A stretch of 64,000 nucleotides of DNA, taken from the NCBI GenBank assembly GCA_017396665.1, contig JAFQLH010000035.1, forward strand, positions 3,206 to 67,205. The letters run 5' to 3'. Origin of the DNA: Oscillospiraceae bacterium (GTDB taxonomy: Bacteria > Bacillota > Clostridia > Oscillospirales > Ruminococcaceae). Positions 50,281-58,254 of this stretch are shown here, piece by piece. The position numbers and the translations under genes were made by a program. The notes under the pieces were generated by a model, which saw only the letters and a list, made by a program, of their open reading frames with translations, was not told where the DNA came from and did no database searches. Every line of letters begins with the position of its first letter. Position 1 is the first letter of the stretch.

Positions 50281-52305
50281 ATGAAACGAACGCTGGCTAT
50301 GCTTTTGTCATTCACAATGCTGTGCGGTATGCTTGCATCCTGCAGTAATTCAGACAGCTCTTCATCTATAGTTGATAGTGGCTCATCAGTAACAGACTCA
50401 AAACCAACTGATGACAGCAGCGAAGTCAAGGATAGCGCACCTGACGACAATAGTAGCGAACCCGAAAAGCCAAGAGAACCGTATGCGCCGAAGGACGTTG
50501 TATGGTCAATTCCTGAACAAAAGGGAATGTTCTCTGCAGGAAGCGGTGTCTATGAAGCTGAGTTTGAACTTACATTGTCCGGTGGAGAAAATATACTGTA
50601 TACAACTGACGGCAGCGACCCTACAATCAGCGAAACAGCACAGCAGTATTCTGCACCAATCAAAATTACCGACAGAAAGAACGATAAAAACGTTATTGCC
50701 GCAATAGACCCAAATCTCTTTGATGCAGCAAACGTAGAGATTAATTCGACAGGTGACGGCTTTGAAACAAAGCTCAGTCTGCCATCTGACAGTGATGTCG
50801 ATAAGTGTACAGTAATCAGAGCCGTTGTAAAAAACGAAGACGGAAGCTTTGGCGAGGTCCAGACTGAAACTTATTTTGTCGGCAGTATGTATGACCATAT
50901 CAAAGGAATAGGTGAGAGCAGTTATGCTTGGAATAATAGCCTTGCAGTAATTTCAATCAGTGCAAACTTTGACGATTTCTTTGACAGTACAACAGGTATC
51001 TACGTCAAGGGCGATGTCTATGATAAAGCTCTTGCAAGCTTCCTTGCTGAAGGCAACAGACTTACCTATGATGATTCAAGAGCCCTTGATGCTAACTATA
51101 AGCAGAAGGGAAGAGCTTGGGAAAGAGAAATCAGCATTAACTTCTTTGAGTCTGATGGTGCAGTTACAGAATGTGTGCTTTCACAGGATTGCGGTGTAAG
51201 AATTCAGGGCAACTTTTCCCGTTCAGACTTGCAGAAGGGCCTAAGACTTTTTGCAAGAAATGATTATGGCGACAACAACTTCAGATATGAAGTGTTCAAG
51301 GGTCTGACAGATGATAACGGTGAAATTCTGGATAAGTTCAAAACACTTACTTTGAGAGCAGGCGGAAACTGTGCCTTCACAACAAAGTATAGCGATACCT
51401 ACTGGCAGTCGCTTGTAACAGAGCTCGACTGCGATACAAAGGCTTCAAGACCTTGCGTCGTATATCTAAACGGTGAGTATTTCGGACTCTATGTGCTTGA
51501 GGAAGATTATGAGTCAGACTACTTTGAAGACCACCACGGCGTTAATAAGGATGATGTTGTGCTCTATAAGGGCGATGCTGAATCACTTGCACTTGGATTC
51601 AAGCTTGATTTAGGCGAGCTTCCGGAAGGTCAGAAGAATGAAGAATACTATTTCAGAGAGCTTTACAGGTTTTTTGATACACATGAAAGCTTAAAGTCTG
51701 AAAGTGATTATGAGAAATTCAAAGAGCTTGTTGATACTGACTCAGTAAGAGACTATTTCGCTGTCCAGATATGGATAAATAACAAGTGGGACTGGCCGGG
51801 CAAGAACTGGTCAATGTGGAAAACAACAACCGTTGACGATTCAAATGAGTACAACGACGGTCGCTGGAGACTTTGCTTCTACGATATGGAGTTCGGCGGT
51901 GTAAGCGGCGGCGGTGACGCTCGGACAAACACCATAAAGGACGATAACTATAAAACCTACGGCTTGCTTGATACAGATACAAGAAACCCTGCAGTGCTTT
52001 GCTTTGCATATCTTATGACAAATGATAGCTGGCGTGAGGATTTTTACTCTACACTTCGTGGCCTGAGCGAAGGACTTTTCTCTGAAGAAAATGCAATCGA
52101 GCAGCTTGATGTCTTCAAGGATTCCTATACACCGCTCTATGATACCTTCTTTGATAGATACCCTGGTACAGGAAGTGCGGATAACTCAAACTATGGCGGA
52201 TATGCAAGCTACCAGTGTATCAAGGACTTTGTAGAAGAAAGACCTGACCATATTGAAAAGATGATTACATGGGCAGATAAAACACTTGAAAGAATGTATG
52301 GATAA
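50281..52305 (+). CDS. CotH kinase family lipoprotein
   Basis: 674 aa. The signal peptide has a lipobox (MLASC). A S/D-rich linker and an ILYTTDGSDPT (chitobiase/FN3-associated-like) segment follow. LRAGGN...YLNGEYFGLYVLEEDY resembles the CotH core from memory. Confidence 0.7.
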   Translation: MKRTLAMLLSFTMLCGMLASCSNSDSSSSIVDSGSSVTDSKPTDDSSEVKDSAPDDNSSEPEKPREPYAPKDVVWSIPEQKGMFSAGSGVYEAEFELTLSGGENILYTTDGSDPTISETAQQYSAPIKITDRKNDKNVIAAIDPNLFDAANVEINSTGDGFETKLSLPSDSDVDKCTVIRAVVKNEDGSFGEVQTETYFVGSMYDHIKGIGESSYAWNNSLAVISISANFDDFFDSTTGIYVKGDVYDKALASFLAEGNRLTYDDSRALDANYKQKGRAWEREISINFFESDGAVTECVLSQDCGVRIQGNFSRSDLQKGLRLFARNDYGDNNFRYEVFKGLTDDNGEILDKFKTLTLRAGGNCAFTTKYSDTYWQSLVTELDCDTKASRPCVVYLNGEYFGLYVLEEDYESDYFEDHHGVNKDDVVLYKGDAESLALGFKLDLGELPEGQKNEEYYFRELYRFFDTHESLKSESDYEKFKELVDTDSVRDYFAVQIWINNKWDWPGKNWSMWKTTTVDDSNEYNDGRWRLCFYDMEFGGVSGGGDARTNTIKDDNYKTYGLLDTDTRNPAVLCFAYLMTNDSWREDFYSTLRGLSEGLFSEENAIEQLDVFKDSYTPLYDTFFDRYPGTGSADNSNYGGYASYQCIKDFVEERPDHIEKMITWADKTLERMYG

Positions 52306-52307
52306 TT

Positions 52308-52349
52308 AAAAAAGCTTCGAGGAGTGAAATCCTCGAAGCTTTTATTTGT
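52308..52349. terminator. Bidirectional rho-independent terminator (14-bp perfect stem) shared by the CotH gene and the SPFH operon
   Basis: aaaagcttcgagga-gtgaaa-tcctcgaagctttt, flanked by an A-tract (5') and a T-tract (3'). Confidence 0.85.
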
Positions 52350-52368
52350 TCTTAATATGTCAGAGGTA

Positions 52369-53811
52369 TTAGCCCTGGATATCAGAATCGTTGAATGGGT
52401 CACCGCACTGTGGGCAGAACTTAGGTGGGTTCTTAGGGTCAGCAGGTTCCCAACCGCACTTATCACACTTGTAAAGTGGTTCAGCTGCAGGCTTCTTAGC
52501 ACCGCATTCCATACAGAACTTGCCCTTGTTAACAGCACCGCATGAGCATGTCCAACCGTCAGCTGCAGGAGCCGGAGCCGGCTTGGACTTTCCACATTCC
52601 ATACAGAATTTGCTTGTGTTTGTAGCACCACATTCACATGTCCAGCTATCAGCTGCAGGAGCTGTCGGAGCAGGAGCAGCCTGCTGTGGAGCCTGTGCAA
52701 CGCCGGCGTTCATCATCTGCTGTGGCATCTGCTGCATTGGGGACTGAGGCTGCTGGTAGCCGCCCTGCATACCCATCTGCTGCTGTTGCATGTACATCTG
52801 CTGCTGGTAAGCCATAGGGTCCTGCATTGGAGCACCCATTCCGCCGCCAGCCATGTTCATACCCATAAATCCGACAGCAGCACCGCCTGCGTTGTTAGCA
52901 GCAGCTTCACGAGCAGCGTTGATGCTCATTCTGTCCATTGAGTAGAGAAGGCCCTGGTTCTGAGCAGTAGCAGCTTCCTGGAACTTAGCGATTCTTTCCT
53001 TGCTAGCGTCGTCAACGTTGAGTTCGAGAGCAAGAGTTGTCATTTCAATACCACGCTTTTCGAGCCATACATCTCTGAGCTCCTCGTTCATTGCAGCAGC
53101 GAGCTCGTCCGGGTAAGCACCAAGCTGGTCATATGGAATTCTCTGAGCAGAAATCTTAGTGAGAGCCTTTGTGAACTTAGGCTTCATTTCCTTCTTCATA
53201 GCTGAAATGAGCTGTGCACCGTCACCTGAGGTTCTTGTAAGAGTTCTTGAAGGGTCCATCATTACGTTTTCATAGAAAGCAACAGGGTTGGAAATCTTGA
53301 ATTCGTAAGTACCGTGTGCCATAGCATTGAGAGAAAGGTTCATTTCACCATCTCTGAATGGAATGTTACCAAATCCGATAGGGTTGTTAAGAAGTGGCTT
53401 GCAGTTGATGTATACAAGACGCATTGTGTTAGTGGACTGACCACCAGCAGTAAATCTTGAAGCCATATTCTTAATTGATGGCCAGATGTCCTTAAGACCG
53501 CCACCAAGAAGTGAAGGCTCAACAGCACTGTCGTACTTGTACTGACCTGCAAGGTCATTTGAGTCTGCGTAAACGAAATCGTGAACCTTTCCGTTTTCAA
53601 CGAGAACGGCAGCCTGACCGATAGCAACGTCAAACAGAGAACCGTTTGTGATTACAGCATCAGAAGCGTTGTTGACAACATTACCACGCATAACCTTTGT
53701 AGCAGCTACGCAAAGGTGGTCCTGTGTCATACCGTCACATCTGAAGTAATCCTTAACCTGGTCCTGAAGGTTTGTTGTTACGGCACCCTTAATCATTTGA
53801 ATTAATCCCAT
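52369..53811 (-). CDS. SPFH (stomatin/prohibitin/flotillin)-domain protein of the YdjI/COG4260 type with a Q/M-rich linker and three C-terminal zinc ribbons
   Basis: About 480 aa. The N-terminal region resembles the YdjI-type SPFH/virion-core-like family from memory. The tail has WTCECG..FCMECG, WTCSCG..FCMECG and YKCDKCG..FCPQCG. The start is set to ATG 53811 (MGLIQMIKG), because the track start at 53832 contains the AGGAGG RBS. Confidence 0.75.
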   Translation of the reverse strand: MGLIQMIKGAVTTNLQDQVKDYFRCDGMTQDHLCVAATKVMRGNVVNNASDAVITNGSLFDVAIGQAAVLVENGKVHDFVYADSNDLAGQYKYDSAVEPSLLGGGLKDIWPSIKNMASRFTAGGQSTNTMRLVYINCKPLLNNPIGFGNIPFRDGEMNLSLNAMAHGTYEFKISNPVAFYENVMMDPSRTLTRTSGDGAQLISAMKKEMKPKFTKALTKISAQRIPYDQLGAYPDELAAAMNEELRDVWLEKRGIEMTTLALELNVDDASKERIAKFQEAATAQNQGLLYSMDRMSINAAREAAANNAGGAAVGFMGMNMAGGGMGAPMQDPMAYQQQMYMQQQQMGMQGGYQQPQSPMQQMPQQMMNAGVAQAPQQAAPAPTAPAADSWTCECGATNTSKFCMECGKSKPAPAPAADGWTCSCGAVNKGKFCMECGAKKPAAEPLYKCDKCGWEPADPKNPPKFCPQCGDPFNDSDIQG

Positions 53812-53874
53812 ATCACATTTCCTCCTAATCATTAGCCCGAAGGCTTAGTTTTTTTATATATAACATCCGTAAGA

Positions 53875-54543
53875 CTAGAATCTTCTTACGTCAGTTATTT
53901 TCCATGCTCTTTCAGTTGCGTCCTTTGTAACAGCACAGTCACAGAAAGGACAGGATGTTGCGTTTTCATCTTCTACAATACCGCCGCAATGGTCACACAC
54001 AAACGCACCCTCAAAACAGCTCATACATATAAAATATATCTGTCCGTTCGGATAATCGGGGTCAGCAGGGGTGAACTGAAGCCTTACCTTAAGCATAATA
54101 TGCGGGTTAGGCGGCTGCGGATTGTATCTTGTAATTTCCGGCGTGGAAACCGATTTTTCATACCAAGGTATGCGTTTTACAGCAATGAATCGCTTGACTT
54201 TGTTTGTCGCCTTTTCATCGCATATCTTAAGAAATGATTTGTATTCATCTTTCGGTCTGCTTCTGAATGCGTCAGCCAGCATTTCAGAAAAGGTCTGAGC
54301 ACAGCTTATAGCATATGATGCGTCGAAGTCAGGGTAGTCATTGAGGATAGCTTCAACAGCTCTGCTTTGTCCCGGATTTGCCATCTGCTTGTTACTGCCG
54401 AGTGCAAGAAGCGTTTCTTTCTGAATGTTAAGCTCCATCTGCTTTTCATTCATGAACCCGTCATCCTGTTGTCTTTTGTAGCTTATAGCTGTGTCAATTG
54501 CCGAACCTAAAACCTGACCTAAAAGCCTTTCTAATAATCCCAC
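53875..54543 (-). CDS. Zinc-ribbon protein, paralogue 3 (no TM segment; amphipathic N-terminus)
   Basis: 222 aa with a GTG start 8 nt after an AGGAGA RBS. It has a YPDFD motif, CDHCG-x11-CPFC and a terminal RAWKITDVRRF. It shares this architecture with the two upstream genes. Confidence 0.6.
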   Translation of the reverse strand: MGLLERLLGQVLGSAIDTAISYKRQQDDGFMNEKQMELNIQKETLLALGSNKQMANPGQSRAVEAILNDYPDFDASYAISCAQTFSEMLADAFRSRPKDEYKSFLKICDEKATNKVKRFIAVKRIPWYEKSVSTPEITRYNPQPPNPHIMLKVRLQFTPADPDYPNGQIYFICMSCFEGAFVCDHCGGIVEDENATSCPFCDCAVTKDATERAWKITDVRRF

Positions 54544-54563
54544 TTGAGTCTTCTCCTATCTGG

Positions 54564-55244
54564 TTATTTTCCAATGTACTTGAGTCTGTTATCGATTCTG
54601 TCAATGTTTACAACAGCCCAGCTTCTGTCCTGATTAAAGTTTTCAATCTTGCTTCCGCAGAATTCACAAGTCTTTTCAAGCTTGCTCTTGTCAGAAATCG
54701 GAGCTCCGCAGGAAGGACAGGTGAGACTGTGCTTAGAGGTTTTTTCTCTTACAATCTTTGCATACTTAAGTGCATATTTTGCTTCAAAAAGGTTTTCTCT
54801 TTCACCGGAGCAATAGTCAACAAAAGCTATGCATTTTAAAGTAAGCTCATTACCCATAACAATGTAGTCAACGAATTTGACATCAGTAACCTTTGGCTTG
54901 GAATAAGGAACCTTAGTTATATTTATTTCGTGTGAAAGCTCAGCGATAACACCCTTTGAGCAGTATTCGTTGAACACCGATAGGTCCTCCTGCTTTGTGC
55001 CGACAGCGAGAATGTACTTTTCAAGAAACTGTGCAACCTTGAAAGATTCTACCTGCATGTTGAAATCCGGAGCGTTCTTTGAAAGATAAACCTCCATAGG
55101 CTCTTTGACAACATATCCGTTTTCAATTGTACGAGGTATGTTGTTGGTAGTGGTTGGCGGATTGTTTCTTCTTGCAGCTTCTTCAATAATAACAACAATA
55201 GCCATTACAATAAATAATATTATGTATATTACGATTTCGTCCAT
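54564..55244 (-). CDS. Membrane-anchored zinc-ribbon protein, paralogue 2
   Basis: 226 aa with an N-terminal TM segment (IVIYIILFIVMAIVVII), an APDFN motif, CPSCG-x13-CEFC and a terminal RSWAVVNIDRI. Confidence 0.6.
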   Translation of the reverse strand: MDEIVIYIILFIVMAIVVIIEEAARRNNPPTTTNNIPRTIENGYVVKEPMEVYLSKNAPDFNMQVESFKVAQFLEKYILAVGTKQEDLSVFNEYCSKGVIAELSHEINITKVPYSKPKVTDVKFVDYIVMGNELTLKCIAFVDYCSGERENLFEAKYALKYAKIVREKTSKHSLTCPSCGAPISDKSKLEKTCEFCGSKIENFNQDRSWAVVNIDRIDNRLKYIGK

Positions 55245-55266
55245 GACGATATTTTCCCCTATAAAT

Positions 55267-55992
55267 TTAGTATGTAGTTCTTCTTAAGTCTGTAACCTTC
55301 CAGGTTCTGTCCACAGAAACAGCCGCAACAGCTGAATCACAGTAAGGACAAACCTTTGCACCGAGTGTGTTTATCGGAGCACCGCAATGTGAACAAATTA
55401 TACTTGCCATCTCGCCCTGAGCACCGGTTTCAATGAAGTAGCTGTATGTAACAGTGTACTTTTCCTGTGTGAGCCTGTTTGTGCTGCTTGGAACATACTG
55501 AAGCGCAAGCTGAAAGTATATATCAGCCTCGTCGTTTGTCTTCTTGTAGTCTGAAATAACAAGCTTGTGAACCTTTACCTGAGAGTAGGTGGTTGAAGCT
55601 GTGTCAGCAAACTGTGCAGCCATAAGCTCAATAAACTGTCTTGAGCAGGTGTCCTCAAAGTCGCTAAGGTCAGTCCTGTGAGCCTTCATTGCAGCAAAGT
55701 ATTCATTAACAAAAGACTTTATGTATGTTTTTGCAAGCGACGGATTGAATTCAGGGAAGTCCTTCATTATACGCTTGAGATGGATAGACTCAACACCTGA
55801 AAGTGTTTTCGGTGTGTGCATCTGTTCTTCATCTGCAGCCTTGATTGTGTTCATAACCTCAGAAATCTGTCCCAGTGACCTTTTAACCTTTCGGATACTT
55901 GCTCTGATTTTGACATAAACAGCATATATAGCTCCGATAACAATAAGGACAATAACGAGTTTTATAATCAGCTTGATTGTTTCCTGGTCCAA
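55267..55992 (-). CDS. Membrane-anchored zinc-ribbon protein, paralogue 1
   Basis: 241 aa with a TTG start after an AAAGGTGA RBS. It has an N-terminal TM segment (LIIKLVIVLIVIGAIYAVYV), an FPEFN motif, CSHCG-x11-CPYC and a terminal RTWKVTDLRR. Confidence 0.6.
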   Translation of the reverse strand: MDQETIKLIIKLVIVLIVIGAIYAVYVKIRASIRKVKRSLGQISEVMNTIKAADEEQMHTPKTLSGVESIHLKRIMKDFPEFNPSLAKTYIKSFVNEYFAAMKAHRTDLSDFEDTCSRQFIELMAAQFADTASTTYSQVKVHKLVISDYKKTNDEADIYFQLALQYVPSSTNRLTQEKYTVTYSYFIETGAQGEMASIICSHCGAPINTLGAKVCPYCDSAVAAVSVDRTWKVTDLRRTTY

Positions 55993-56025
55993 TCTGCGTC
56001 ACCTTTCTTTTTGGTAATTATCAGC

Positions 56026-57096
56026 TTACAGTAAAAACAGAAGCAGAACGAAAATAAGTATGCTTGGAATACCTGTGAACAAGCAGAGCTTAAGGTAGTC
56101 AATCGGAAGGTTTCCGATGAATTTTCCTGTCTGACCGTTCATTGCAAAGAAGTAGTCTTTATCCTTGTACTTGGTGTAAAGAAGCCATGTAGGTAAAAGA
56201 GCATATTCGGTCTTTTCAACGTCAAGCTTATGAAGATACTGCTGAACGTTTACGTCATCATACTGACAAGTCTTTACGAGCTCGTCACGGCCTGTGTTTA
56301 CAATTCTCTCAGAAGCTCTGTTAATGCAGGTGTCCTTGTCCTCATCGAATCTTTCAGCAAGATATCCTGCAAGATAACCGATGTTGAAAGGAACCATTTC
56401 CTTGAAATCGTATGGCTCGATAGAGTCCATAGCAGCGTCTTCTGTCTTCTTTGAAGCGTCAACAGGAACCTTTTCGAAAGAGAGGGAGCCCTCTCTGAAA
56501 ACATTGTGGTGGTGAGATTCTGTAATCTCATAGTCCCCGCTTCTGTGACGTCTCTTATTAATACCGTCAGCCTTGATTGAGCCTGTGAGTGTGCCCGAAT
56601 AAAGCCAGAACGGAATATATACGCCCTGAATCTTGTCTACAACCTTGTCACAATCGAAATCCTTTGGTGTAAGAGGCTTTTTGCTGAATTCCTTGAAGGA
56701 ATTCATAACCTTGGATTTGTCAATCTTGAATGGTATAACATATTCAGGCTTGAAGTCTCCTATAACCTGCTCGGTCATAATTACCGGGTTAGAGCAGTAT
56801 ACACAGATTGTAGCTGCAGTAGCTCTGTCTGTGATAATTTCTGCACCGCAGTGTGAGCATCTGTACTGAACAAGGTCACTGCCGACAGTTCCGTCAGTAG
56901 ACTGGTACTGGCTCTTGTCACCCTCAAGCTCCTGATGCTTGTCAACCTTTTCTTCGTTTAATTCGTTTTTACCTGCAGCATCAAGCTGTTCGAGTGTGAA
57001 CACATCATCGCAGTATTTGCAGGTCCAGTTTTGAGTTTCGGCAGAGAACTGAAGGTCGCCACCGCAGGTTAAACATTTATAAATTACATTTCCCAT
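56026..57096 (-). CDS. Double zinc-ribbon protein with a C-terminal TM anchor (YdjG-like)
   Basis: 356 aa with CLTCG-x15-CKYC and CSHCG-x15-CVYC ribbons at the N-terminus, a central soluble domain (YIPFWLY, NGQTGKF) and a C-terminal hydrophobic helix (LCLFTGIPSILIFVLLLFLL). An AGGAGG RBS lies upstream. Confidence 0.65.
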   Translation of the reverse strand: MGNVIYKCLTCGGDLQFSAETQNWTCKYCDDVFTLEQLDAAGKNELNEEKVDKHQELEGDKSQYQSTDGTVGSDLVQYRCSHCGAEIITDRATAATICVYCSNPVIMTEQVIGDFKPEYVIPFKIDKSKVMNSFKEFSKKPLTPKDFDCDKVVDKIQGVYIPFWLYSGTLTGSIKADGINKRRHRSGDYEITESHHHNVFREGSLSFEKVPVDASKKTEDAAMDSIEPYDFKEMVPFNIGYLAGYLAERFDEDKDTCINRASERIVNTGRDELVKTCQYDDVNVQQYLHKLDVEKTEYALLPTWLLYTKYKDKDYFFAMNGQTGKFIGNLPIDYLKLCLFTGIPSILIFVLLLFLL

Positions 57097-57110
57097 ACAG
57101 CGTCAGCCTC

Positions 57111-57356
57111 CTAGTTATTAATTTTACGACGTGTTGTAGTGGTGTGAGAGAATACGTCGCTTTTTCCTGTAAGCTTAAGCTGACTTGAAATATACTTTTC
57201 AGCCCTTGTAGCCTTTATCTTAGTCCTGCTCTGTGCAAGCAGGGAAACAGCTATAATTATTCCGGCGAGAACTGATATACCAAGTGCAAGCAACGGGTTA
57301 TCAGAACTCATCATTGTAGCATTCGAAACAAGTGCGAAGTAAATACTATTTAACAT
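57111..57356 (-). CDS. Small single-pass membrane protein (81 aa), first gene of the SPFH/zinc-ribbon operon
   Basis: MLNSIYFALVSNATMMSSDNPLLALGISVLAGIIIAVSLLAQSRTK... ATG 57356 follows a GAGAGGGG RBS and lies downstream of the promoter. The track start at 57440 lies upstream of the promoter, so I reject it. Confidence 0.5.
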   Translation of the reverse strand: MLNSIYFALVSNATMMSSDNPLLALGISVLAGIIIAVSLLAQSRTKIKATRAEKYISSQLKLTGKSDVFSHTTTTRRKINN

Positions 57357-57389
57357 CAGAAATAAACCCCTCTCGTCAAATCTGAGTTT

Positions 57390-57418
57390 AGTATAACATA
57401 TTGCCGTAAAAAAGTCAA
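57390..57418 (-). promoter_or_regulatory. Promoter of the SPFH/zinc-ribbon operon: TTGACT-17-TGtTATACT (extended -10)
   Basis: The reverse complement reads ttgact tttttacggcaatatgt tatact. The predicted TSS is about 27 nt upstream of ATG 57356. Confidence 0.65.
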
Positions 57419-57545
57419 TGTTTTTCCTTGATTTTTGCAAAAAAATATATTATATTTACTCCGCGGCGGTATATATGTGTTTGTGACAATATAATTTACC
57501 TTTTGGTTTGCGGGGCTCAGCGAAGCCATATAATCGTTAAAATCA

Positions 57546-57574
57546 TTGATTTTACAAAGAAATTGTGTTATACT
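57546..57574 (+). promoter_or_regulatory. Promoter for thiN: TTGATT-17-TGtTATACT (extended -10)
   Basis: ttgatt ttacaaagaaattgtgt tatact. The track's GTG start at 57565 lies inside the spacer. Confidence 0.6.
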
Positions 57575-57606
57575 TAGAAAGGCTTTTGTCAAAGGAGGTG
57601 TCCCGT

Positions 57607-58254
57607 GTGAATCGGAAATGTTTTATGTATTGTGCAGGAAGCTATTACGATGGATATGTAATTCCGTCTGAAGCTGACTTTATAGTTGCGGTGGACGGTG
57701 GATATGAGCATCTGAAGAATCTTGGAATAAAGCCGCAGCTTGCAGTAGGTGATTTTGATTCGCTGGGATTTGTTCCGCAGAATGTTGAAACAGTATGTCA
57801 TCCTGCTGTAAAGGATGATACAGATACTGTTCTTGCGGCAAAGCTTATGCTTGAAAAGGGTTATAAGAATTTTTATATATTCGCTGCATTCGGTGGCAGG
57901 GAAGACCACTCCTACGCAAATTATCAGCTTCTCACATGGCTTTCAAGACGGGGCGCAGATGTTTTTGCGTTTGATGACGGGTATGCATATACTGCTGTTC
58001 ACAATGCAACAATTATATTTGATAAATGCTATGAAGGTGTTGTTTCAACCTTCTGTGCAGGAGAAGTCGCTCAGGGCGTTACAATGACAGGACTCAAATA
58101 TACGCTTGATAACGCTATGCTTACCTGTGATAATCCTACAGGTGTAAGCAATGAATTTATAGGTGAGAGTGCAACAATCTCTGTAAAAGAGGGCACACTC
58201 TTGGTAATGTTTGAAAGAAAAAGTGATATTACACTTCCTTTGATAATCAGATAG
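57607..58254 (+). CDS. thiN: Thiamine diphosphokinase
   Basis: It has FIVAVDGGYEHL, AVGDFDS and KDDTD motifs. GTG 57607 lies 8 nt after an AAAGGAGG RBS. Confidence 0.85.
   Translation: MNRKCFMYCAGSYYDGYVIPSEADFIVAVDGGYEHLKNLGIKPQLAVGDFDSLGFVPQNVETVCHPAVKDDTDTVLAAKLMLEKGYKNFYIFAAFGGREDHSYANYQLLTWLSRRGADVFAFDDGYAYTAVHNATIIFDKCYEGVVSTFCAGEVAQGVTMTGLKYTLDNAMLTCDNPTGVSNEFIGESATISVKEGTLLVMFERKSDITLPLIIR

Follow-up and report, generated by a model that had tools for sequence, protein, structure and literature searches.

A PspA-less operon of the YdjG/YdjI type with three predicted Tim44-like zinc-ribbon proteins and a conserved micro-protein in an Oscillospiraceae bacterium

Introduction

The operon studied here, six genes on the minus strand at positions 52308–57418 of a 64,000-nucleotide stretch of DNA (the window) from an Oscillospiraceae bacterium (assembly GCA_017396665.1, contig JAFQLH010000035.1), has its closest described counterpart in pspA-ydjGHI of Bacillus subtilis. 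In that organism the operon stands under a sigma-W promoter. The soluble SPFH protein YdjI reaches the membrane only with the help of YdjG and YdjH and then recruits PspA; PspA foci depend on YdjI, and the foci of both proteins depend on YdjG/H (PMC8581546). Under the names SamG, SamH and SamI, the same proteins were recently described as a system in which SamI restrains SamG-SamH signalling, with a phenotype that does not need PspA; the sigma-W regulon that holds the operon responds to phage infection among other stresses, and SPFH proteins in general are discussed as enclosing or regulating membrane complexes (bioRxiv 10.64898/2026.02.06.704340). Ravi et al. describe the Bacillus operon as PspA together with YdjG (two zinc ribbons, an NTF2-like domain and a transmembrane segment), the TPM-domain protein YdjH and a Band-7/zinc-ribbon protein. 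They propose a chaperone-like assembly role for the Band-7 and TPM partners and consider that abbreviated related operons may work with PspA homologues encoded elsewhere; their text makes no mention of a Tim44-like partner (PMC11237479). YdjG and YdjI have so far been studied in B. subtilis only, inside the PspA operon.

An earlier note, made by reading the window sequence alone, had pointed to this locus as a YdjG/YdjI-like core without pspA and had named, as speculation, a membrane-integrity or stress scaffold and a defence or abortive module as its possible roles. Here we show how the locus compares with the B. subtilis system and with some 95 related loci. What is new is a PspA-less and TPM-less module of the YdjG/YdjI type with a triplicated, predicted Tim44-like zinc-ribbon subunit and a conserved micro-protein. 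The underlying SPFH system is already known, and the operon is a variant of it, not a new type of system.

Results and Discussion

The relation to the B. subtilis system is clearest for the second gene, g2 (56026–57096, minus strand, ATG start), which encodes 356 aa. Our reference was a pspA-ydjGHI locus of B. subtilis type (L006; our loci carry L numbers), found in a metagenome by means of a primer sequence printed in PMC8581546. Residues 4–356 of g2 align with residues 3–335 of the L006 YdjG at 33% identity (E 2e-65, BLASTP), so that the resemblance proposed in the earlier note extends over the full length. Both proteins have a C-terminal FAMNGQTGK motif, which is invariant in a 19-sequence alignment, as are the cysteines of the two g2 zinc ribbons (C8/C11/C26/C29 and C80/C83/C98/C101), and g2 ends in a predicted transmembrane segment (residues 332–356). 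The alignments argue strongly that g2 is a true YdjG/SamG homologue. Its family, here called G, is large: a protein search found >6,400 homologues, and a collection with one genome per species contained at least 596 matching stretches. The AlphaFold2 (AF2) model of g2 (predicted local distance difference test score, pLDDT, 84.5; predicted template modelling score, pTM, 0.78) consists of the two ribbons, a domain of helix and very long β-hairpin, and a C-terminal transmembrane helix. Foldseek gave no meaningful PDB fold match for this model; the top matches were the pores of β-pore-forming toxins (probability ≤0.06, template modelling scores, TM-scores, of about 0.07), with scores so low that we rejected them as artefacts of the long hairpins. 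The model also resembles two giant-virus (Klosneuvirinae) proteins in BFVD, A0A5K0UBJ7 (E 5.9e-10) and A0A3G4ZSZ8 (E 7.4e-9), which both carry the name 'DnaJ-like subfamily C member 3' and align over 240–260 columns at TM-scores of about 0.47. This model-based likeness suggests that the YdjG globular domain may be present in giant viruses as well.

The last gene, g6 (52369–53811, minus strand, ATG start with AGGAGG ahead of it), encodes the SPFH protein of 480 aa; the NCBI entry identical to it is named 'SPFH domain-containing protein [Oscillospiraceae bacterium]'. A profile of the g6 family aligns with YdjI at an hhalign probability of 98.9% (E 1.9e-17, 192 columns), and 20 of 20 sampled homologues, 48–70% identical to g6, match Pfam Band_7_1 (PF13421), the best at 5.9e-18. 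At the level of profiles, g6 can be assigned as a divergent Band_7_1 SPFH protein related to YdjI/SamI, as had been proposed from its sequence. The protein has no predicted transmembrane segment, and a Met/Gln/Gly-rich linker leads over to three Cys4 modules at residues 392–469, in the C-terminal part of the protein (window 52369–52700). The first two of these modules follow the pattern W-x-C-x-C-G-x2-N-x3-F-C-x2-C-G, while the third is a classical CxxC-x13-CxxC ribbon. We take the pattern of the first two to be reminiscent of RanBP2-type zinc fingers, for which the only database hint is a weak match to the RBM10 zinc finger 2mxv (E 0.74).

With B. subtilis PspA-YdjGHI (PspA-SamGHI) the operon thus shares G, built from two zinc ribbons, a β-rich domain and a C-terminal transmembrane segment, and the SPFH protein, here called I, built from a soluble Band_7_1 SPFH part, a low-complexity linker and one or more C-terminal ribbons. 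In both cases G and I lie in one operon with G first. The differences are substantial. The window operon has neither pspA nor the TPM-domain YdjH, and it contains instead a micro-protein and a set of three Tim44-like proteins with zinc ribbons; these three are not relatives of YdjH. Its I protein has three zinc modules, whereas YdjI has one, its promoter is of the sigma-70 type with an extended −10 and not a sigma-W promoter, and the module is without any predicted extracytoplasmic domain.

As the earlier note had stated, pspA and a YdjH-like gene are missing from the operon and its flanks. In Pfam-annotated copies of the locus, neither the operon nor the ±10 kb around it holds a PspA or TPM/YdjH gene, and jackhmmer searches seeded with B. 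subtilis PspA and YdjH found neither in the 64-kb window. Among 95 sources, including the whole window, the PspA seed detected PspA in two Bacillus loci only, and none was found in the close relatives of the operon (L091–L096).

Between G and I lie three minus-strand genes of one family, which we call T: g3 (T1, 55267–55992, TTG start, 241 aa), g4 (T2, 54564–55244, ATG start, 226 aa) and g5 (T3, 53875–54543, GTG start, 222 aa). BLASTP gave 26% identity between g3 and g4 (E 3e-18) and 24% between g3 and g5 (E 2e-18), confirming that the three are tandem paralogues. In g3 and g4 a predicted N-terminal transmembrane helix is followed by a Tim44-like NTF2 domain into which a Cys4 zinc ribbon is inserted before the last strand. 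In g5 an amphipathic N-terminal helix, with the highest N-terminal hydrophobic moment among the six proteins, stands in place of the transmembrane helix.

The AF2 model of g3 (pLDDT 77) has the transmembrane helix and then an NTF2-like cone of three helices and a four-stranded curved sheet. Its top Foldseek matches are ARC6/PARC6, the C-terminal domain of Tim44 (2cw9, 3qk9), mL45, the CaMKII hub and assorted NTF2-like proteins, with E of about 1e-3, probability 1.0 and target TM-scores of 0.4–0.65. Pfam Tim44 (PF04280) is matched by 29 of 72 sampled T family members, the best at 1.4e-12; g3, g4 and g5 themselves have no PF04280 match at E<1. Judged by the g3 model, the globular part of T adopts an NTF2 fold like that of Tim44, which agrees with what had been guessed for the paralogues beforehand. 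Tim44 and mL45 use this fold for docking at the inner membrane. T would share it with the Tim44 C-terminal domain, mL45 and the intermembrane-space domain of ARC6/PARC6, which are all NTF2-like and membrane-associated. The sequence similarity to these proteins is marginal, and T differs from them by its N-terminal transmembrane helix and the inserted zinc ribbon.

An exhaustive profile search collected 2,293 cluster representatives of the T family at E≤1e-3 and 238 at E≤1e-30. A k-mer search with g3 saw only 14 relatives, because the family evolves fast. The zinc ribbon of T is similar to the second one in G (hhalign probability 93%), and profile searches of the PDB with the G, T and I families returned generic zinc ribbons only. 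Two other assignments of T were ruled out, namely a divergent YdjH/TPM protein (hhalign probability 0.2% for the T profile against YdjH) and a paralogue of the G globular domain, since zinc ribbons alone align between the two. In the literature that we searched there was nothing relevant on a Tim44-like/SPFH link or on PF13421 in defence contexts, and T is a sizeable family without mention there.

The first gene, g1 (57111–57356, minus strand, ATG start), encodes a predicted single-pass micro-protein of 81 aa, with a transmembrane-like segment at residues 18–45 and a conserved basic cytoplasmic tail, SRTKxKATxAxxYI...TTT. It has no match in the Pfam, NCBIfam and PADLOC libraries. In L010 and in L091–L096 a homologue of 62–100 aa is encoded at the corresponding place ahead of G, so that g1 belongs to a conserved micro-protein family, here called m. 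For all six proteins, scans against the same libraries gave zinc-ribbon noise only, apart from a weak Band_7_1 match. Of the eight Cys4 zinc modules that the operon encodes, g6 carries three, g2 two and each T protein one; all their cysteines are invariant in the family alignments. Transmembrane-like segments are predicted for g1, g2 (C-terminal), g3 and g4 (both N-terminal) and for neither g5 nor g6. The count of eight ribbons and four anchored proteins, with an amphipathic third paralogue, with which the earlier note had described the operon, is therefore correct.

Next, we compared the operon with the 80 best G loci of a species-level genome scan and with ten look-ups of I, about 95 loci in total, in which the neighbouring open reading frames were labelled by hidden Markov models built for this analysis. 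The loci come from Bacillota, Actinomycetota (Collinsella), Spirochaetota and Bacteroidota, and in most of them G lies beside I or close to it. The largest group consists of 30 loci from Collinsella/Coriobacteriaceae in which G is linked to T and I, with four more that have T only. G is linked to I and the TPM protein H (YdjH) in 14 loci (Faecalibacterium, Oscillospiraceae, Lachnospiraceae, Treponema, Bacteroidales), to H only in 13 loci from various taxa, to I only in seven loci from various taxa plus two of the Collinsella type, to I, T and H in five clostridial loci, and to m and I in two (L010, L011). PspA, H and I accompany G in the two Bacillus loci that were fetched by primer, in the order PspA-G-H-I, and only in Bacillus loci does PspA adjoin G or I. 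A Pfam scan of 109 co-directional neighbours from about 47 non-redundant loci found no recurrent PspA family; DUF6935 occurred in eight and DUF4428 in four. The constant core is G plus I, and the accessories (TPM, T, m, DUF6935) vary.

The I-G-H(TPM) or H-G-I modules of Faecalibacterium, other Clostridia, Treponema and Bacteroidales have the same pspA-less G-I core as the window. They differ by the TPM protein, which is often followed by a DUF6935 protein, and they are usually without T and without the micro-protein. The T-G-I operons of Collinsella/Coriobacteriaceae are like the window operon in having T, of about 245 aa, beside G and I, and neither TPM nor pspA. Here, however, a single T comes first, G is longer (440 aa), no micro-protein was detected, and T is only 13–23% identical to the window T proteins. 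The earlier suggestion that the paralogues take the place of YdjH stands only in part: YdjH is indeed absent here, but five loci have both T and TPM, and the two proteins are predicted to have opposite topologies. More distantly, SPFH-NfeD and HflK/C-FtsH operons also pair an SPFH protein with small membrane partners; the window SPFH protein, in contrast, is of the Band_7_1 branch without a transmembrane segment of its own, and no NfeD or FtsH gene is linked to it.

In clostridial I-G-H(TPM) modules, H is often followed by a single-transmembrane protein of about 340–390 aa (L027, L045, L067, L026, L073, L063, L042, L069). From the Pfam table, which is aggregated, we infer that these proteins are the DUF6935 hits, and they are candidates for additional, as yet uncharacterised subunits of the module. 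One of these loci, L073, from an Oscillospiraceae metagenome-assembled genome (MAG), carries two convergent I...G-H(TPM) copies on a single 10.9-kb contig.

The six-gene arrangement is not confined to one genome. Two sister species (L095, L096) have m-G-T1-T2-T3-I at the same locus (85–89% identity), and more distant relatives (L092–L094), whose SPFH proteins are 54–65% identical to g6, have the four-gene operon m-G-T-I. In L091, with an SPFH protein 80% identical to g6, the order is m-G-T1-(T2-T3 fused)-I: the orthologues of g4 and g5 form one gene (L091 5522–6922) for a protein of 466 aa with two T domains, T3 standing at the C-terminus of T2. This fusion argues that the T2 and T3 proteins contact each other and, as a Rosetta-stone fusion, would explain why g5 has no transmembrane helix of its own. 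In a neighbour-joining tree T1 groups with the single-copy T, and T2 and T3 form their own fast-evolving orthologue sets. As judged from the tree and the gene orders, m-G-T-I is the local ancestral form and the six-gene operon a lineage-specific expansion, with the triplication of T limited to a small clade. Just upstream of m-G-T-I in L094 we also noticed a gene for a stomatin-type, classical Band_7 protein (PF01145; 3740–4609).

The genes of the expanded operon diverge at very different rates. Between sister species protein identity is 90% for g6, 81% for g2, 64–67% for T1 and 40–46% for T2 and T3, with g4 at 40–41% to its orthologue. The ratio of nonsynonymous to synonymous substitution rates (dN/dS) is about 0.09–0.36 for all six genes against the two sister species, at a dS near saturation that for g1 was not computable against one of the two, and these values point to purifying selection on all six. 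For T2 and T3 dN/dS is about 0.23–0.36 against L095 and L096, where dS is saturated and relaxed constraint and diversifying selection are not distinguishable.

The open reading frame listing and direct reading of the sequence give six co-directional genes, each with a plausible ribosome-binding site and separated by gaps of 14, 33, 22, 20 and 63 nt from g1 to g6, just as tightly spaced as first described. The putative sigma-70-type promoter (57390–57418, minus strand) consists of TTGACT, a 17-nt spacer and a TG-extended TATACT, and is the top-scoring promoter-like site in a 10-kb scan (10/12 plus TG). A consensus match alone is weak evidence for a promoter, because the scan found 40 consensus-type sites against 18.9 expected. 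When the upstream sequences of four species are aligned, however, the −35, TG and −10 elements prove invariant while the surrounding sequence has diverged. With window 57440–57520 aligned to the corresponding sequence of L091, L095 and L096, one more conserved block, A-A-x-G-T-A-A-A with GTAAA invariant, is seen about 80–90 nt upstream of the −35 in all four species; it may be a regulator binding site or part of the divergent thiamine pyrophosphokinase gene. At the other end an intrinsic terminator hairpin (52310–52343) with a 14-bp stem and a T-rich tail on each strand is bidirectional and common to the operon and the convergent CotH-domain gene. Both signals had been named in the earlier note, the terminator with the same stem length. 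A scan of 52000–58000 found no Rfam element anywhere in this range, leader and intergenic regions included.

The flanking genes (thiamine pyrophosphokinase, acyl-ACP thioesterase, an M3 peptidase, a CotH protein, two ABC exporters and pyrimidine biosynthesis genes) are housekeeping genes. In several related species, too, the operon adjoins the thiamine pyrophosphokinase gene, a sign of vertical inheritance. Neither the Pfam-annotated flanks nor the GC content gave signs of a mobile element or a defence island at the locus, and the GC content of the operon genes (0.38–0.49) embraces the window mean of 0.43. Copies of the locus are found on long contigs of the MAG GCA_054278255.1 and of several gut and rumen metagenomes.

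From the homologies, the predicted topologies and the gene linkage, we read the operon, with a probability of roughly 55%, as encoding an SPFH scaffold of YdjG/YdjI (SamG/SamI) type that is anchored in the membrane and faces the cytoplasm; it is the first of the two roles raised in the earlier note, reached here by way of the YdjG/YdjI homology. Because of the zinc ribbons and the positive-inside flanks of the membrane segments, all globular parts are placed in the cytoplasm. The micro-protein, the tail-anchored G and the N-terminally anchored T1 and T2 would be small membrane anchors with nearly all of their mass in the cytoplasm, and T3 would be peripheral, attached via its amphipathic helix and via T2. 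In the order of recruitment that we infer, these anchors and T3 would bring the soluble I protein to the inner leaflet. There it would form oligomers, in the manner of SPFH proteins, and build a platform beneath the membrane by which perturbation of the membrane would be sensed or buffered. Like SamI in B. subtilis, I may also keep the signalling of its partners in the membrane in check. The contact modules are probably the Cys4 ribbons of G, T and I. We count for this scaffold the linkage of T to G-I in distant lineages, that is in the 30 Collinsella-type loci, the five clostridial loci that bear TPM and the Ruminococcus-like m-G-T-I loci.

Several points weigh against the scaffold. The B. 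subtilis model relies on YdjH, with its extracytoplasmic TPM domain, as main anchor and signalling partner, and the window operon has no counterpart to this protein or any outward-facing domain. Taken alone, g6 reaches only 20.7 bits (E 3.4e-4) against Pfam Band_7_1, below the gathering cut-off of 24, and its pairwise similarity to YdjI is remote (E 2e-4). The very fast divergence of T2 and T3, at 40–46% identity next to the 90% of g6, is not expected of a plain housekeeping scaffold. Finally, the PspA searches used a single-sequence jackhmmer seed and an aggregated Pfam table, so that a divergent or rare PspA neighbour could be missed.

This last point bears on the alternative that survives best, in which G, T and I tether a PspA/IM30 protein (ESCRT-III-like) encoded elsewhere to the damaged membrane, as in Psp-type recruitment. 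The homology of G and I to YdjG and YdjI, the dependence of PspA foci on YdjI, and of both on YdjG/H, in B. subtilis (PMC8581546), and the use of PspA in trans that Ravi et al. allow for abbreviated operons (PMC11237479) all speak for it. Yet pspA lies beside G or I in none of the roughly 90 non-Bacillus loci examined and is missing from the 64-kb window, and the SamGHI phenotypes do not need PspA (bioRxiv 10.64898/2026.02.06.704340). We therefore regard recruitment of PspA in trans as unlikely.

A more far-reaching form of the scaffold takes T as an unrecognised class of adaptors for anchor-less Band_7_1 SPFH scaffolds, in which the duplicated and fast-evolving T2 and T3 serve as diversifying specificity or sensor subunits. 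This extension we consider rather improbable. If true, it would turn a housekeeping scaffold into a tunable, PspA-less membrane sentinel, whose T2 and T3 could sense, for example, membrane-targeting toxins, bacteriocins or phage proteins.

The operon could also provide a chaperone or holder platform for a membrane client encoded elsewhere, comparable to HflK/C with FtsH or QmcA with its NfeD partner YbbJ. Such a platform would fit the general behaviour of SPFH proteins toward membrane complexes (bioRxiv 10.64898/2026.02.06.704340) and the chaperone-like role proposed for Band-7 and TPM partners (PMC11237479). No protease, NfeD or other client gene, however, is linked in the window or its relatives, and the conserved partners are limited to G, T, m and TPM, which makes a dedicated holder function improbable.

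Five of the six proteins carry invariant Cys4 modules, eight in total, and all of these are predicted to lie in the cytoplasm near the membrane. On this basis one may further think of a zinc- or redox-responsive membrane switch, in which release of zinc on oxidation would alter the SPFH assembly, or of a zinc buffer. The organism belongs to the Oscillospiraceae, which are obligate anaerobes. Zinc ribbons are, however, widespread as structural modules, those of the B. subtilis homologues have no reported redox role, and no thioredoxin, metal transporter or metal regulator is linked in any of the loci examined. Hence we hold such a switch or buffer to be very improbable.

Least probable of all is the membrane-triggered anti-phage or abortive-infection module of the earlier note, with T2 and T3 as diversifying sensors: protein divergence of T2/T3 between sister species at about six times that of g6, the duplication of T in the window lineage and the phage response of the sigma-W regulon (bioRxiv 10.64898/2026.02.06.704340) would suit it, but there is no significant match in PADLOC-DB v2 (best E 0.008–0.4, in transmembrane or zinc-ribbon segments only), library scans of the six proteins found no effector domain, be it of a nuclease, protease, pore-forming toxin, NTPase or other kind, the surroundings consist of syntenic housekeeping genes and not of a defence island or mobile element, dN/dS stays well under 1, and G homologues occur in just nine of 50,697 phage records, all unannotated and mostly short. 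The last count also rules out a phage origin of the module.

Conclusion

In summary, we find in the window a PspA-less relative of the B. subtilis YdjG/YdjI system, which we read as a probable cytoplasm-facing SPFH scaffold. The evolutionarily constant unit of this system is G plus I, which is present in several phyla and almost never linked to pspA, and this distribution supports the recent view that the module has a role independent of PspA. The accessory membrane subunits appear to be interchangeable, with TPM, the Tim44-like T, the micro-protein and DUF6935 being used in different lineages, and one abundant clade of the gut and rumen has built a version without any outward-facing domain. 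The T family, uncharacterised in spite of its 2,293 cluster representatives, can now be named as a candidate SPFH partner. The window operon thereby offers a simple test case for how an SPFH protein that lacks an anchor of its own may dock to the membrane.

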